NCBI GenBank assembly: GCA_018968925.1
Contig: JAGWZI010000003.1
Location: 1-42,169 of the forward strand
Origin: Patescibacteria group bacterium
GTDB lineage: Bacteria > Patescibacteriota > Minisyncoccia > Phycocordibacterales > GWA1-40-21
Direction: 5' to 3'
Length of the DNA: 42,169 nucleotides
Each line of letters begins with the position of its first letter. Within the stretch, counting starts at the first letter, position 1. The position numbers and the translations under genes are program-made. Below, in pieces: positions 4,428 through 23,485 of the stretch. The notes beneath the pieces are model-generated. The model ran no database searches and had not been told where the DNA came from. It was given only the letters and a program-made list of their open reading frames with translations.

Positions 4428-4534
4428 GCGTATCACCTCGCTTTCATGATAACGTTCCGCTTTCAGCATACTCCTTTCCGCCGGTCGCGCAAGCGCTTCC
4501 TTTTTCCGGAAAAATATGATAAATTCTCGTGGCC

Positions 4535-4601
4535 GAGCGGTTAGCTGTTTGGGTAGGTCATTTCAAATATTGCGGGGATTAGCTGTTTTGGCAGATCGTT
4601 T
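4535..4601 (+). repeat. Two degenerate tandem copies of the tRNA-Val 5' end
   Basis: GAGCGGT-TAGCTGTTTGGGTAG (4535) and CGGGGAT-TAGCTGTTTTGGCAG (4573) versus tRNA GGGCGGT-TAGCTCAGTTGGTAG (4615). Confidence 0.7.
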
Positions 4602-4614
4602 ACAAAAAACTTGC

Positions 4615-4690
4615 GGGCGGTTAGCTCAGTTGGTAGAGCGCAATCTTGACGTGATTGATGTCAGAGGTTCGATTCCTCTACCGCCCACCA
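4615..4690 (+). tRNA. tRNA-Val(GAC)
   Basis: GGGCGGT/ACCGCCC acceptor stem, CAATC-ttGACgt-GATTG anticodon arm, GGTTCGATTCC T-arm, encoded CCA. Confidence 0.97.
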
Positions 4691-18928: not shown

Positions 18929-21124
18929 ATGAATGAGAAGTTCTTGAAACCCTACAACCCGCAGGAAACCGAAGGAAGGATTTACAAGCTCTGGGAAACC
19001 TCCGGCTATTTCAATCCCGATAAACTGCCGGCAGACCACAAGGATCCGTACACGATCATGATGCCGCCGCCGAACGTCACCGGCGTCCTCCACATGGGAC
19101 ATGCCATGATGATAACGATCGAAGATATCATGATCCGCTACAAAAGAATGCGCGGGTATAAGACGCTCTGGCTGCCGGGCACCGACCACGCCGCCATTGC
19201 CACGCAATCGCGCGTCGAGAAGGACATCAAGAAAGCGGAGGACAAATCGCGCTACGATCTCGGCCGCGAGGAACTTCTGCGCCGGATCGACGCATTTGCC
19301 AAGCAAAGCCACGACACGATCATCTCCCAGCTCAAAGTCTTCGGCGCGTCATGCGACTGGTCGCGCGAAGCGTTCACGCTCGACGAGAAGCGCAACCTTG
19401 CCGTCCGCACGATCTTCAAGAAAATGTACGACGACGGCCTTATTTATCGCGGCAATCGTATCGTGAACTGGGACCCGAAAGGTCAGACGACGATTTCCGA
19501 CGACGAGATCGTCTACGAGGAACGCGACGCAAAATTCTACACGTTCAAGTATTCCAAGGACTTTCCCATTTCCATTTCCACCACGAGGCCGGAAACAAAA
19601 GTCGGCGACACCGCGGTCGCCGTGCACCCGGACGATCTGCGATACCAGAAATATATTGGGAAGGAATATGATGCGGTTTTCTGCGGCGTGCCGATCCATA
19701 TAAAAATCATCGCGGACAAATCCGTCGAGAAGGATTTCGGCACGGGCGCGCTTGGCGTCACGCCGGCGCATTCCAAGATCGACTGGGAAATGGGAGAGAA
19801 AAATCATTTGCCGATCATCCAGGTCATCGACGAGAAAGCCCGCATGATGGTCGGCGATGAACGCCTGATGGGCAAGAAAGTCACCGAAGCCCGCGAAGTG
19901 ATCGTGGAATGGCTCAAATCCGAAGGACTTTTGGAAAAAGAAGAAACAATCAAGCAGAACGTCTCGACCGCCGAACGCACGGGCGGCATCGTGGAACCCC
20001 TGCCAAAACTCCAGTGGTTCGTGGCTGTTGATAAAAAATTTAATATTGAAAAGAAAAACAACAGCGGTATGTTCCCTACCGGCATGAAAGAAGCGTCTTT
20101 GAAAGACATACTCTGGCACGCAGTCAAACCAAATCAAATTAATATTATTCCTGAATATTTTTCAAAAACATATTTTCATTGGACTGAAAAATTAAACGAT
20201 TGGTGCATCTCGCGCCAGATCTGGTACGGCCATCGGATTCCTGTCTGGTACAAAGGCGAGCAAATCTATTGTGGTACCGAAGCGCCGAAAGGCGACGGTT
20301 GGACGCAGGATGAAGACACGCTCGACACCTGGTTTTCCTCGGCGCTGTGGACGTTTTCCACGCTCGGCTGGCCGGAGCAAACGAAAGATCTCGCTATGTA
20401 CCATCCGACAGACGTCCTTGAAACCGGCTACGAGATCATTTTCTTTTGGGTCGCCCGCATGATCATGATGACCGGCTACGCGCTCGGCACAATTCCCTTC
20501 AAGACGGTGTATCTTCACGGCACCGTGCGCGACGCGAAAGGCCGCAAGATGTCAAAATCGCTCGGCAACGGCATCGATCCCCTTGATATCGCGGCGAAGT
20601 TCGGCGCGGACGCCGGCCGCATGGCGCTCGTCGTCGGCAACGCGCCGGGTACGGACAGCAAGATCTCCGAAGACAAGATCAAAGGCTACAAGAATTTCTC
20701 AAACAAGGTCTGGAACATCGCCCGCTTCATCCAGGAAGGAACCGCCGGCACCGCGTATGATCCGAAATTTACCTCGTTCACTCCGGATGAAGAGCACGCG
20801 CGCGAAGAGCGCAGGGCGTTCATCGCGGACATGACGCGCGACATGGAAGAATTCCGCTTCTATATGGCGAGCGAGAAGATCTACCATTACGTCTGGCACA
20901 CGCTCGCCGACGTCATCCTGGAGGACAGCAAAAAGATCTTCAAGGACGGCGCGGAGGAGGCGAAAATATCGCGCAAACAGTTCCTGCTTGAAACGCTCGA
21001 GATCTGCCTCAAACTGCTTCATCCGTTTATGCCGTTTTTGACCGAAGAGATCTGGCAACTCACCGGCAAGAGGAATCTGCTCATGATCGAAACCTGGCCG
21101 ATAGCGAAAGAAACCGATGCATAG
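18929..21124 (+). CDS. valS: Valine--tRNA ligase (lacks C-terminal coiled coil)
   Basis: PPPNVTGVLHMGH, PGTDHAAIATQ, TTRPET, DWCISRQIWYGH, DTWFSS, KMSKS, LHPFMPFLTEE; 731 aa from ATG 18929. Confidence 0.97.
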   Translation: MNEKFLKPYNPQETEGRIYKLWETSGYFNPDKLPADHKDPYTIMMPPPNVTGVLHMGHAMMITIEDIMIRYKRMRGYKTLWLPGTDHAAIATQSRVEKDIKKAEDKSRYDLGREELLRRIDAFAKQSHDTIISQLKVFGASCDWSREAFTLDEKRNLAVRTIFKKMYDDGLIYRGNRIVNWDPKGQTTISDDEIVYEERDAKFYTFKYSKDFPISISTTRPETKVGDTAVAVHPDDLRYQKYIGKEYDAVFCGVPIHIKIIADKSVEKDFGTGALGVTPAHSKIDWEMGEKNHLPIIQVIDEKARMMVGDERLMGKKVTEAREVIVEWLKSEGLLEKEETIKQNVSTAERTGGIVEPLPKLQWFVAVDKKFNIEKKNNSGMFPTGMKEASLKDILWHAVKPNQINIIPEYFSKTYFHWTEKLNDWCISRQIWYGHRIPVWYKGEQIYCGTEAPKGDGWTQDEDTLDTWFSSALWTFSTLGWPEQTKDLAMYHPTDVLETGYEIIFFWVARMIMMTGYALGTIPFKTVYLHGTVRDAKGRKMSKSLGNGIDPLDIAAKFGADAGRMALVVGNAPGTDSKISEDKIKGYKNFSNKVWNIARFIQEGTAGTAYDPKFTSFTPDEEHAREERRAFIADMTRDMEEFRFYMASEKIYHYVWHTLADVILEDSKKIFKDGAEEAKISRKQFLLETLEICLKLLHPFMPFLTEEIWQLTGKRNLLMIETWPIAKETDA

Positions 21125-21890
21125 CGAGGCGCTCTCGTTCGTCATAGCGTTCCTCGGCGGATTCCTGCCGTCCTTCGTCTGGCTTTTTTTCTGGAACGAG
21201 GAAAAGAAATCGGCGGAACCGCTCCGCGCCCTCATCCTCGCTTTCGCCGGCGGCATGGCGGCGGTTTTCATCTCGCTCTTCCTCGAAAAAACCGTTTACA
21301 ACATCGACCCGAACGCGATCTCGCATGGCGCCCTCTGGCAGGCGTTCCTGTCATGGGCAAAAGCGGTCGCAAATATGAAAAATGTGGCGCTCGGCCAGTT
21401 CCTCCTCGTGACGCTTTTCGCGCCGATCATCGAGGAAACGCTCAAATTCCTCGCGGCATACCTGCTCGTCCTGCGTAGCCGCGATGACGAGGAACCGATC
21501 GATCCGGTCATCTTCATGATCACCACGGCGCTCGGCTTTGCCGCCGTCGAGAACATGCTCTTTCTCCTCGATCCGCTGACCCAATCGAGCCTCCACGTCT
21601 CGATCTATACCGGCAACATGCGCTTTGTCGGCGCCATGCTCCTCCATACCGTCTCGTCGGCCACCATCGGCCTCTTCATCGGTTTCAATTTCTTCGATAC
21701 GAAGATCGAGGAGTATTTCTGGGGCTTTACCGGCCTTGTCGCCGCCATTCTCATCCACTCGCTCTTCAACTTCTTCATGATCGGTTCGAACTCGCTCGTC
21801 GTCTTGGAAGGAATCTGGATCAGTGTTATCATGGTCTTGTTCATCATCGAGAAGGTGAAACGGATCCGGCTCGAGAAGATCGAAAAATAG
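21117..21890 (+). CDS. PrsW-family intramembrane metalloprotease
   Basis: IEETLK, ALGFAAVEN, LLHT, IHSLFN motifs in a polytopic protein; overlaps the valS stop. Confidence 0.9.
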   Translation: MHSEALSFVIAFLGGFLPSFVWLFFWNEEKKSAEPLRALILAFAGGMAAVFISLFLEKTVYNIDPNAISHGALWQAFLSWAKAVANMKNVALGQFLLVTLFAPIIEETLKFLAAYLLVLRSRDDEEPIDPVIFMITTALGFAAVENMLFLLDPLTQSSLHVSIYTGNMRFVGAMLLHTVSSATIGLFIGFNFFDTKIEEYFWGFTGLVAAILIHSLFNFFMIGSNSLVVLEGIWISVIMVLFIIEKVKRIRLEKIEK

Positions 21891-21917
21891 TGCGATTACC
21901 AATTTTCATGCACATTG

Positions 21918-22358
21918 ATGGCAAAAAAATCATTTTTTGAGAAGCTGACGGGCATGGTGCGGGCGGATGAGGATGAGCGCGAAGGCGACGAACTTTCCCC
22001 CGTCCTGACCGACGCCGAGGAAGAAACCGATGGCGAGCTTGCCGTCGACATGTACCAGACGCCGTCCGAAGTGGTCATCAAGACGATGGTCGCCGGCGTC
22101 CGGCCGGAGGATCTCGACATCTCCATCACCCGCGACATGGTGACGATCAAAGGCCATCGCGAGGACACGCGCGAAGCGTCGGACGAGGATTTCTTCCACA
22201 AAGAACTCTACTGGGGCTCGTTCTCCCGCACGATCACCCTGCCCGCCGAGATCGAAGTCGAGGAAGCCGAAGCGACGAACAAGAACGGCCTTCTCACCCT
22301 TACCCTGCCAAAAATCGACCGCAACAAACAGGCGAAAGTGAAGATCAAGAGCGTCTAG
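21918..22358 (+). CDS. Hsp20/alpha-crystallin small heat shock protein
   Basis: LAVDMYQT..VAGVRPEDLDI..ELYWGSFSRTITLP..NGLLTLTLPK. Confidence 0.93.
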   Translation: MAKKSFFEKLTGMVRADEDEREGDELSPVLTDAEEETDGELAVDMYQTPSEVVIKTMVAGVRPEDLDISITRDMVTIKGHREDTREASDEDFFHKELYWGSFSRTITLPAEIEVEEAEATNKNGLLTLTLPKIDRNKQAKVKIKSV

Positions 22359-22360
22359 CG

Positions 22361-22386
22361 AAAACCGCCCGTACGGGCGGTTTTTT
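22361..22386. terminator. Bidirectional intrinsic terminator
   Basis: AAAACCGCCC-gtac-GGGCGGTTTTTT. Confidence 0.78.
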
Positions 22387-22390
22387 CATG

Positions 22391-22463
22391 TGTCAGGAGC
22401 CGGGTTCGAACCGGCGACCCTTCGCTCTTCAGGCGAATGCTCTACCAACTGAGCTATCCTGAC
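22391..22463 (-). tRNA. tRNA-Phe(GAA)
   Basis: GTCAGGA/TCCTGAC acceptor stem, TTCGC-ctGAAga-GCGAA, GGTTCGAACCC. Confidence 0.96.
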
Positions 22464-22471
22464 ATTTCTTG

Positions 22472-22537
22472 ATGTTATCCACCAAAACAGCTATCCTGAA
22501 ATACGCTAATGTTATCAGCCAAAACAGTTATCCTGAC
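22472..22537 (-). repeat. Two 37-bp-period degenerate copies of the tRNA-Phe 5' end
   Basis: - strand GTCAGGA-TAACTGTTTTGGCTGATAACAT and TTCAGGA-TAGCTGTTTTGGTGGATAACAT precede tRNA GTCAGGA-TAGCTCAGTTGGTAG. Confidence 0.8.
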
Positions 22538-22599
22538 GGACTCTTGCAAACAAAATTCCAGCGAGAAAATACTACACTATTTCCCCTCTTTTTTCCAGC

Positions 22600-22878
22600 C
22601 TATTTCTTCGTGCTCGTGCCGAAGCCGGGGATCTTGCTCGTGATCTCCTTCACGTTGCCAAGATCGGTGACGATGCTCGAATAGGTCCGCAAAACGGTGT
22701 CGACGTACGGCTCGAGATAATAGAACCCGCCGACCGCGACGCCGATGATGAGAATCCAATAGACGGAAGTCAAAAATACCGACCAGCGGTGGGCGTTGCG
22801 CAAGCTGCGGAGAATCTTGTTGTTCTCTTCGGCAAGCTCGGTCATGCGCTCGAACAGCTGTTTCTGATACGGGTCCAT
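22600..22878 (-). CDS. Hypothetical single-TM protein
   Basis: LAEENNKILRSLR helix followed by one TM helix (VFLTSVYWILIIGVAVGGFYYL). Confidence 0.75.
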   Translation of the reverse strand: MDPYQKQLFERMTELAEENNKILRSLRNAHRWSVFLTSVYWILIIGVAVGGFYYLEPYVDTVLRTYSSIVTDLGNVKEITSKIPGFGTSTKK

Positions 22879-23453
22879 TATATCCGCTCGATCAAGCCGC
22901 TAATGCTGCCCGGATAGCTGAAGTTCAGCGTGCCCGACGGCAAGAGGACGAAATACGCGTTCGTCGTGTTGAAGCCGGCGGTCAGATTCTTCACTTCCAC
23001 CATGGCGAATCCTCCCGAATAAACGAGGAAAAAGGATGTCGACGGCGTCTGCGGATATTTTGCGATGACCGCTTTTTCAAGATCGGCGACGGAGGAGATC
23101 GATACGGTGCCCGGAAATTCGCTCGCACCCGGCCAGTAGTAAAGTTTCATGCCGACGCCCACCTGCTCCGTCCGCGGACCGAAGTACACGAGACTGCCGT
23201 CATTCGTTTTCGTGTTCATGATCCACGTGCTCGGATGCGGATTGGCGAACGAGAAGCCGAGCGCACGGTTGTAATATACGTTCGCCGACACTTTGACCGT
23301 CGAACTTGCCGCCGCCGCAGACGATGTCGATGCGGTCGACGTGGCATTTGCGCCGGTCGACGGCGAGCCGCCCGCGCTCAAAACGACAATTATGATAAGA
23401 ATGATCACTACCGCCGCAATGACAAGATACACTGGTTGAAAATATTTTTTCAT
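22878..23453 (-). CDS. Hypothetical membrane-anchored secreted protein
   Basis: N-terminal TM, Ser/Thr/Ala linker, YYNRALGFSF..P..W motif (PsbP-like start). Confidence 0.7.
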   Translation of the reverse strand: MKKYFQPVYLVIAAVVIILIIIVVLSAGGSPSTGANATSTASTSSAAAASSTVKVSANVYYNRALGFSFANPHPSTWIMNTKTNDGSLVYFGPRTEQVGVGMKLYYWPGASEFPGTVSISSVADLEKAVIAKYPQTPSTSFFLVYSGGFAMVEVKNLTAGFNTTNAYFVLLPSGTLNFSYPGSISGLIERI

Positions 23454-23485
23454 GGCATTCACATTATACCACCTTCCCGGCCGTG

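Follow-up and report, generated by a model that had tools for sequence, protein, structure and literature searches.

Tandem, damaged copies of a tRNA 5' end in the leader of tRNA-Phe and of other tRNA genes in Patescibacteria

Introduction

The leaders of tRNA precursors are usually regarded as throw-away sequence. Partial tRNA copies beside tRNA genes are a classic mark of integrative elements, and repeats that re-use part of a tRNA are known from several other settings. The tRNA-linked repeats of E. coli, such as the 178-bp repeat after tyrT, lie downstream of the gene, copy its 3' end, and occur at few loci in one species. Plant mitochondria and haloarchaea have t-elements and acceptor-mimicking stem-loops, of which the t-elements take the fold of a tRNA-like top half and serve as substrates of RNase P or RNase Z. 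Tandem arrays of trnF pseudogenes also occur in the plastids of Brassicaceae. In the Solanaceae, plastid trnF(GAA) is accompanied by tandem pseudogene arrays made of D-, anticodon-, and T-domain pieces, which serve as clade markers (PMC3786074). Synthetic riboswitch leaders have been built that sequester the leader or the cleavage site in a ligand-responsive manner and so control RNase P (PMC8925977).

Here we analyze 42,169 nucleotides of a patescibacterial genome (the window), the source assembly of which comprises 579,453 bp (0.58 Mb) in 31 contigs with 55% G+C and 45 tRNA genes. An earlier note, made from the sequence alone, had pointed to two mimics of the tRNA's own 5' end in the leader of tRNA-Phe(GAA), and had offered alternative pairing, decoy sites, or scars of repeated integration as explanations.

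Results

The array upstream of tRNA-Phe(GAA)

On the minus strand, two head-to-tail units run into tRNA-Phe(GAA) in exact register (Table 1), the steps from unit 1 to unit 2 and from unit 2 to the start of the tRNA being exactly 37 and 37 nt. The coordinates and sequences of the two mimics described earlier were verified, and Tandem Repeats Finder reported a period of 37 at 22452-22537 (2.3 copies, 79% matches, score 109). The 18-mer pattern TCAGGATARCTGTTTTGG, when up to three mismatches were allowed, matched at these three places alone in the window. By chance, 0.04 hits would be expected, and three or more hits were obtained in none of 100 shuffles. When Rfam 15 was searched, the tRNA alone matched, the Phe units giving no match even at E-values up to 10 and the units at five other loci giving none at gathering scores.

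Table 1. Features of the tRNA-Phe and tRNA-Val(GAC) loci in the window, and two RNA genes elsewhere in the assembly (C, contig)
Feature	Position	Strand	Remarks
PrsW-family protease gene	21117-21890	+	precedes the Hsp20 gene
Hsp20 gene	21915-22358	+	converges on the tRNA terminator
Hairpin CCGCCC-GTAC-GGGCGG + TTTT	22361..22380	-	likely tRNA terminator; read from sequence
tRNA-Phe(GAA)	22391..22463	-	ARAGORN and Rfam (72.5 bits); last, partial repeat of the array
Unit 2 (proximal, 37 nt)	22464..22500	-	TTCAGGA-TAGCTGTTTTGG-TGGATAACAT-CAAGAAAT
Unit 1 (distal, 37 nt)	22501..22537	-	GTCAGGA-TAACTGTTTTGG-CTGATAACAT-TAGCGTAT
-10-like TAGTAT, within TAGTGTAGTAT	22569..22574	-	at 11/11 genus loci; predicted start near 22562
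-35-like TGGAAA, in genus-conserved tRNA-Phe promoter block CTGGAAAA	22592..22597	-	putative promoter role
ORFs upstream of tRNA-Phe	22600-22878, 22878-23462	-	no Pfam family above cut-off
Extended -10 pattern TGATAAATT	4517..4525	+	ends exactly 9 nt before the first Val-GAC unit
Second array, two units	4535..4614	+	before tRNA-Val(GAC) (4615-4690)
Val-GAC distal unit	starts 4535	+	GAGCGGT-TAGCTGTTTGGG; 1 mismatch to tRNA
Val-GAC proximal unit	starts 4573	+	CGGGGAT-TAGCTGTTTTGG; 3 mismatches to tRNA
RNase P RNA gene	C15:13889-14225		129 bits
tmRNA	C2:1142-1547		

The distal unit consists of GTCAGGA, which is identical to the acceptor 5' strand of the tRNA (7/7), followed by TAACT-GTT-TTGG and the tail CTGATAACATTAGCGTAT; the proximal unit consists of TTCAGGA (6/7, G1 being changed to T), TAGCT-GTT-TTGG, and the tail TGGATAACATCAAGAAAT. 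That the units mimic the tRNA's own 5' end was thus confirmed. The tRNA itself reads, from 22463, GTCAGGA TAGCTCAGTTGG TAGAGCAT; its 3' acceptor strand, TCCTGAC, occupies 22398-22392, its discriminator A is 22391, and CCA is not encoded. The units track the tRNA to about position 31, with the exception of two patches, both of which fall in the D-stem: C13-A14-G15 is replaced by GTT in each unit, and G24 by TAA, after which GATAACAT(T/C) is aligned opposite the GAGCATT of the tRNA. In unit 1, G10 is additionally changed to A.

The Phe array shares the traits by which we delimit a family of such units: (i) a same-strand copy, no more than about 130 nt upstream, of the tRNA's own acceptor 5' strand plus TAGCT (here 7/7 plus TAACT in unit 1, and 6/7 plus TAGCT in unit 2); (ii) GTY, TTGG, and YAG/YRG in succession (here GTT-TTGG and then CTG in unit 1 or TGG in unit 2); and (iii) a host tRNA with a TAGCTCAG(T/C)TGG D-arm (here TAGCTCAGTTGGTAGAGC).

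The block CTGGAAAA..TAGTGTA(A/G or C)TAT lies upstream of tRNA-Phe in 11 of the 11 genus loci examined. The hexamer TAGTAT, which the earlier note had taken for a -10 element, falls inside this conserved block; a generic sigma-70 scan did not call it. The -35-like TGGAAA directly follows the stop codon of the upstream ORF, and together these elements suggest that transcription of tRNA-Phe would begin near 22562. The presumed terminator was missed by a rule-based scan because its T run is only four long.

Copies at other tRNA genes of the same genome

The first 12 bases of each tRNA were sought in its 150-nt upstream region, a test that makes no reference to the motif. At up to two mismatches, nine tRNAs had a copy, including Val-GAC, Phe, Ile-UAU, Thr-GGU, Asp, Met, Val-CAC, and Thr-UGU, the neighbor context of Thr-GGU also being counted among the nine; with looser copies at Val-UAC and Lys-CUU, 11 of the 45 tRNA genes in this 0.58-Mb genome are preceded by a copy of their own 5' end. 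All 11 host tRNAs carry TAGCT at positions 8-12 and a TAGCTCAG-type D-arm, and all copies have D-arm positions 13-15 altered from CAG to GT(T/C), with the continuation GT(T/C)T(T/G)GG. At the 29 tRNAs with other D-arm classes, the same motif-free test found no copy of their own 5' end.

Searches with the motif agreed. The pattern TARCTGTTTTGG had seven hits in the genome, each immediately upstream of a tRNA gene and on its strand, while the reversed control had none; exact CTGTTTTGG was found 130 nt or less upstream of a tRNA at 9 of its 14 sites, although only 0.5% of positions qualify. Beyond tRNA leaders, the motif occurs at chance level. The recurrence that the earlier note had proposed as a check was thereby borne out, both at 11 of 45 tRNAs here and in the leaders of relatives (below). 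The second array of the window, before tRNA-Val(GAC), is one of the seven hits of TARCTGTTTTGG and is detailed in Table 1, together with the RNase P RNA gene and the tmRNA; a 16S rRNA gene was not found in the 31 contigs.

Partial copies next to tRNA genes, the presence of which differs between strains, bring to mind att-type scars of elements that were once integrated in the tRNA gene and have since been lost, one of the origins proposed in the earlier note. However, it is the 5' and not the 3' part that is copied, and only 9-37 nt separate copy and tRNA; at the Phe locus, where it is likewise the 5' block that is repeated, each copy is set off from the following unit, or from the tRNA, by a tail of 15-18 nt. 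The neighbors there are the genes for Hsp20 and the PrsW protease, and ORFs of unknown kind, and no insert separates the repeats. Further, such scars would have had to form at 11 loci in 0.58 Mb, with identical tandem units and the same lesion at every tRNA, and seven viral-contig stretches that contain the pattern are without a link to any tRNA. We consider integration scars highly improbable, and that part of the earlier note was abandoned. A phage origin of the units was likewise rejected, none of these seven stretches being tRNA-linked.

Distribution among relatives

Of 24 other genomes of the genus, 13 contain the exact 12-mer, as do 2 of 16 further families that were sampled, and where a tRNA follows it in these relatives, the preceding 7-mer agrees with that tRNA. 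A public scan for TAGCTGTTTTGG-N19-49-TAGCTCAG, using one genome per species, returned at least 116 stretches, of which 80 were taken as loci. Among the matches listed, record titles name Nomurabacteria, Paceibacterota, Lloyd-, Taylor-, and Zambryskiibacteria, Saccharibacteria, and Minisyncoccia, while others read Parcubacteria or Patescibacteria group, or just 'bacterium'; six listed records from other phyla were taken as chance, because there was no tRNA at the match.

Among the matches listed, 65 mimic/tRNA pairs from Patescibacteria, representing 31 distinct acceptor 7-mers, had zero, one, two, or three mismatches in 44, 8, 8, and 5 cases. In the control, a unit 7-mer equaled a non-cognate acceptor in 0.2% of comparisons (same 65 pairs, matches listed). 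The acceptor part thus covaries with the cognate tRNA, a check that the earlier note had proposed, 44 of 65 pairs among the matches listed being identical.

As the 65 pairs were ascertained with the exact motif, they cannot gauge how well the motif is conserved. An unbiased scan was therefore made with three bases left free (TAGCTNNNTTGG) across 301 genomes of the order, 44 of which had a match. The triple at the 61 matches outside the focal genome (G000), counted by eye and including one GTT from the unpublished genome G271, was GTT in 36, GTC in 16, CAG in 6, and TTT, CTC, and GAC in one each; GTY is therefore found at 52/61 free-triple matches in these 301 genomes, G000 left out. Uncrippled CAG copies are rare (6/61), but their existence indicates that a raw copy is not lethal. 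In one genome (G133:C5:18185-18314), tandem 61-nt repeats each contain unaltered TAGCTCAGTTGGTAGAGCAG and are raw partial tRNA copies.

Motif-free tests gave a similar picture of the lesion and a varied one of unit counts: compared with 11 tRNAs here, copies were seen at 3 of 44 tRNAs in a complete genome of the same genus, where one reads ATG and not GTY, and at 3 of the 35 tRNAs seen in a genome of another family, where all read GTY and arrays reach at least three units. Taken together, the units appear to be a family of crippled tRNA 5' copies that extends through the Patescibacteria (candidate phyla radiation). Literature searches found no description of tRNA leader copies or of the motif, the motif matching primers only; as far as these searches reach, this widespread family is undescribed. 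In one public record (L042, Candidatus Paceibacteria), ARAGORN called a tRNA with a UUA anticodon ('Stop tta') that has its own two-unit array and that may be a suppressor or recoding tRNA.

The D-arm lesion

The earlier note had held that GTT in place of CAG breaks the D-stem, and the C13-G22 pair is indeed abolished; also gone are A14 and G15, both of which are engaged in tertiary contacts in tRNAs (U8-A14; G15). The same GTY recurs at ten different tRNA species and in different families. The tRNA gene cannot refresh it, yet it is constant, so that either the exact sequence is recognized or it is generated by some further process. Slippage would account for the identity of the acceptor part but not for the shared GTY, which calls for selection of the exact sequence or for another generating mechanism. 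We infer that the lesion is probably under selection. In our own reading, GTY could be a loss of C13-A14 combined with two extra U before G18, in which case Y would be the natural U/C at position 17.

Predicted structure offers little by way of a common cause. When all 64 triples were compared by nearest-neighbor folding, GUU ranked 23rd, GUC 13th, and CAG 56th in native acceptor pairing; for native folding, the lesion is thus predicted to be better than a raw copy but not special, and GTY as the optimal triple was ruled out by ranks 23 and 13 of 64. A conserved hairpin of G10-U17 was not detected (4.34 paired bases with real and 4.17 with shuffled tails, 33/64 units higher, p = 0.35). A register-shifted GUU/AAC stem was enriched (14 of 64 units, where shuffles gave 6.2 +/- 2.3), yet was rejected as a common structure since only a fifth of units have it. 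Likenesses to boxA, ops, K-turn, hammerhead, and CRISPR repeats did not fit all units and were dropped.

A block that is conserved in sequence without demonstrable structure might be a binding site: TAGCTGTYTTGGYAG, as DNA or RNA, could be bound by a protein or nuclease, with the acceptor part a mere passenger of copying. Such a site would suit the restriction of hosts to one D-arm class, as well as the constancy, across tRNAs and families, of a GTY that is not refreshable from the tRNA gene. Weighing against it, no candidate factor was found, and away from tRNA leaders the motif is at chance level. The motif has no notable complementarity to the genome's own RNase P RNA (-10.5 kcal/mol, against -12.3 +/- 1.6 for shuffled motifs), and the tmRNA 5' end is unlike it. 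We regard a factor site of this kind as unlikely.

Transcription of the units

In the focal genome, the extended -10 pattern TGNTANNNT ends 20 nt or less from +1 at 17 of 45 tRNAs, where 0.01 would be expected per search window. Genome-wide, the distance from its end to the mature 5' end (+1) has a mode of 9 nt and is mostly 9-10 nt, so that most pre-tRNA leaders should be only about 2-3 nt long. At Val-GAC, Met, and Lys-CUU, exactly 9 nt separate the end of the pattern from the first unit; at Asp the distance is 17 nt, and in G322 the unit begins 10 nt after the end of the conserved Phe promoter. Units are also found between co-oriented tRNAs, namely Arg-Val here and likewise in L097. On the strength of this promoter geometry and of the position between co-oriented tRNAs, we take the units to be leader RNA; they probably lie inside the transcribed leader, as the earlier note had supposed, and would then be removed by RNase P cleavage at the true +1.

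In each focal unit, a TAACAT stands 8 nt upstream of the following +1, making additional start sites within the array possible. This is the observation behind another explanation, namely that a unit is a promoter together with the first transcribed bases of the tRNA, duplicated in tandem so that extra promoters raise tRNA output. In the distal Phe unit, TAACAT belongs to TGATAACAT (22517-22509), an exact fit to the genome's TGNTANNNT that ends 8 nt before the next unit, and the proximal unit has its TAACAT 8 nt before the tRNA. Elsewhere in this genome, TGCTAAGAT lies between the Thr-UGU unit and its tRNA and TGGTAGATT within the Thr-GGU unit, and many long units (49-59 nt) of AT-rich relatives contain -10-like hexamers, as judged by eye. 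Short units (31-43 nt), in contrast, mostly lack a -10-like hexamer with T last, which was counted by eye in about 15 of 65 tails among the matches listed; at Met, Lys-CUU, Val-GAC, and Asp, TGNTANNNT is found only upstream of the first unit, with none between unit and tRNA; and the GTY lesion is left unexplained. Promoter duplication is thus very unlikely as the general explanation, and for most units a promoter role was rejected, given the few -10-like tails and the position of TGNTANNNT upstream of arrays.

Pairing versus copying

The unit retains the acceptor 5' strand and could compete with it for the tRNA 3' strand. When the predicted 172-nt Phe transcript was folded, the 3' strand paired with the distal unit at a probability of 0.87 and with its native strand at one of 0.10, and constrained energies were -56.0 kcal/mol for distal, -52.8 for native, and -50.9 for proximal pairing. 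Alternative pairing was predicted to be dominant at three of six other loci. Pairing with the 3' strand, which the earlier note had considered possible, is thus thermodynamically competitive within the model, which takes no account of tertiary structure or co-transcriptional order.

From this it might be argued that each array is a cis-regulatory switch under selection, in which pairing of the leader copy to the 3' acceptor strand delays or times RNase P cleavage and 3' maturation, while unit number sets the level of each tRNA. Besides the predicted energies, it can be noted that acceptor identity is far above chance, that the lesion leaves both the acceptor strand and G18-G19 intact, and that engineered leaders that hide the cleavage site do control RNase P processing in E. 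coli (PMC8925977). The pattern of mismatches points the other way. Among the mimic/tRNA pairs of the matches listed, 26 of 39 mismatches would abolish pairing to the 3' partner, against 13 that would preserve it, and G>A (13 among 192 G) is as common as C>T (11 among 177 C) in the same listed matches. Mismatches are therefore without bias toward pairing bases, so the covariation looks like the result of copying and not of selection for pairing, which was not supported. What is preserved between unit and acceptor is identity, not complementarity. In addition, tRNA-Phe of close relatives can do without the copies, which are missing altogether from 7 of 11 Phe loci in the genus, and the limits of the folding model apply to the predicted energies. 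We therefore hold a selected pairing switch to be doubtful, and control of folding or of RNase P processing by the units to be possible.

Gain and loss of units

Two to four units are present at 28 of 65 public loci among the matches listed, two of the two-unit calls being doubtful, and within these listed arrays the units are often identical. At locus L066, one and the same mismatch to the tRNA recurs in three units, which have thus been copied from one another. Repeated copying between the shared acceptor+TAGCT blocks would explain identical units, their loss in relatives, and the tracking of the tRNA.

The tRNA-Phe loci of the genus illustrate this turnover. The promoter-like block is constant, whereas the leader varies between genomes from 13 to 74 nt; GTY units number two here, one in G322, and one in G022, whereas at seven of the 11 loci the tRNA 5' end is not copied at all. 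All these GTY units share the GATAACAT tail, while the 7-mer tracks the local tRNA at four positions, being GTCAGGA here and GCCGAGG in both G322 and G022, in each case as in the tRNA. Upstream of tRNA-Phe in G006 (L147) is a copy of another kind, which reproduces tRNA positions 1-17 exactly and leaves CAG unaltered; it is followed by two hairpins and GGTAGAG and lies about 110 nt before the true tRNA-Phe, and the insertion is absent from the otherwise same leader of G016. In a contig of metagenome run X2, from a related population, 32 other letters stand between the promoter and tRNA-Phe where the focal genome has the 125 nt (22465-22589) with the array, but this is a weak hint, since only 27 letters fit on one side. 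Run X8 contains a diverged leader with units that end in a GGTAGGTAACATCG-type tail. The tRNA-Asp leader of G021 has a promoter that matches that of the focal genome, no tRNA copy, and a direct repeat (tccatagttat, twice). Leaders in the genus seem generally prone to small tandem duplications.

The unit tails were compared with the rest of the tRNA, and no overall similarity was found (9.5, against 9.0 for shuffled tails, p = 0.2), so that tails as the decayed remainder of the tRNA were rejected; a few single tails do contain T-arm or 3'-acceptor pieces.

Discussion

The reading we prefer, with a probability of roughly 0.55, is that these arrays are slippage-driven leader minisatellites of crippled tRNA 5' copies that are discarded by RNase P and bear a selected D-loop lesion. 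Each unit would be a partial copy of the downstream tRNA gene, covering at least positions 1-22 (about 1-31 at the Phe locus) and carrying a stereotyped D-arm lesion in which C13-A14-G15 has become G-U-Y, with G24 also changed to UAA at Phe. The array would constitute a minisatellite with the tRNA gene itself as its last, partial repeat, and slipped-strand duplication and deletion between acceptor+TAGCT blocks would create, copy, and remove units, thereby probably holding the acceptor part in step with the tRNA. To judge by promoter geometry, transcription from the tRNA promoter would include the units in the leader; RNase P, the RNA gene of which is present, would then cut at the true +1 and discard them. 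A second tRNA-like body, if one formed, would presumably be cut by RNase P at the wrong place. The lesion would destroy the D-stem together with the U8-A14 and G15 tertiary contacts, leaving the copy unable to form such a body, and this may be what is selected. The copy can still compete for the 3' acceptor strand in folding predictions, and may therefore slow or tune maturation.

We also entertain, as a tentative alternative, a phylum-wide, two-part leader module in which the acceptor strand serves as an address and the constant UAGCUGUYUUGGYAG is read by a factor that sets the rate of RNase P maturation, unit number acting as a fast-evolving supply dial. The tRNAs tuned in this way would be those of the D-arm class (Val, Thr, Lys, Ile, Met, Phe, Asp), in genomes with a single gene for each tRNA.

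Whichever explanation applies, a large uncultivated bacterial phylum retains a precisely damaged copy of the tRNA start in many of its tRNA leaders. If the copies affect folding or RNase P cleavage, they would represent a natural, undescribed means of tuning single-copy tRNA genes. If they are merely tolerated minisatellites, they would provide a clean example of concerted evolution anchored on an essential gene, and would also reveal which parts of a tRNA must be broken to render a partial copy harmless. As units share at least 12 bases with true tRNA genes, they can confuse both tRNA annotation and assembly in these genomes.

The arrays differ in kind from several systems that they recall. 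A CRISPR array was rejected, as the inter-repeat parts are identical within arrays, the repeat changes with the tRNA, and the period is 31-59 nt. Like att duplications, the units are partial tRNA copies next to an intact gene, but they copy the 5' part, form tandem arrays at many loci, and are accompanied by no element. They share with t-elements that tRNA-derived pieces in transcripts meet the tRNA-processing machinery (here, on our reading of the leaders), but the units consist of the 5' strand only and appear to be altered such that tRNA-like folding is impossible. The repeats at tyrT in E. coli are also direct repeats that re-use a stretch of the neighboring tRNA, unequal recombination being the presumed origin of both; there, it is the 3' end that is copied, downstream of the gene and without any conserved lesion, whereas the units described here copy the 5' end and lie upstream.

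Engineered riboswitch leaders resemble the units in that part of the precursor is contested or masked by its 5' leader, which could thus set the rate of processing (PMC8925977). Unlike in those designs, the putative competitor here is a naturally occurring copy of the acceptor strand. A further resemblance is to the plastid trnF arrays, which are likewise tandem partial tRNA copies beside the parent gene, seemingly produced by local duplication (PMC3786074). Those arrays belong to an organelle, involve one gene, and are built of varied pieces, whereas in this case positions 1-22 are copied with a constant lesion, at about ten tRNA species, in the leader, and across a bacterial phylum. The resemblance to plastid trnF is a likeness of kind, not of descent.
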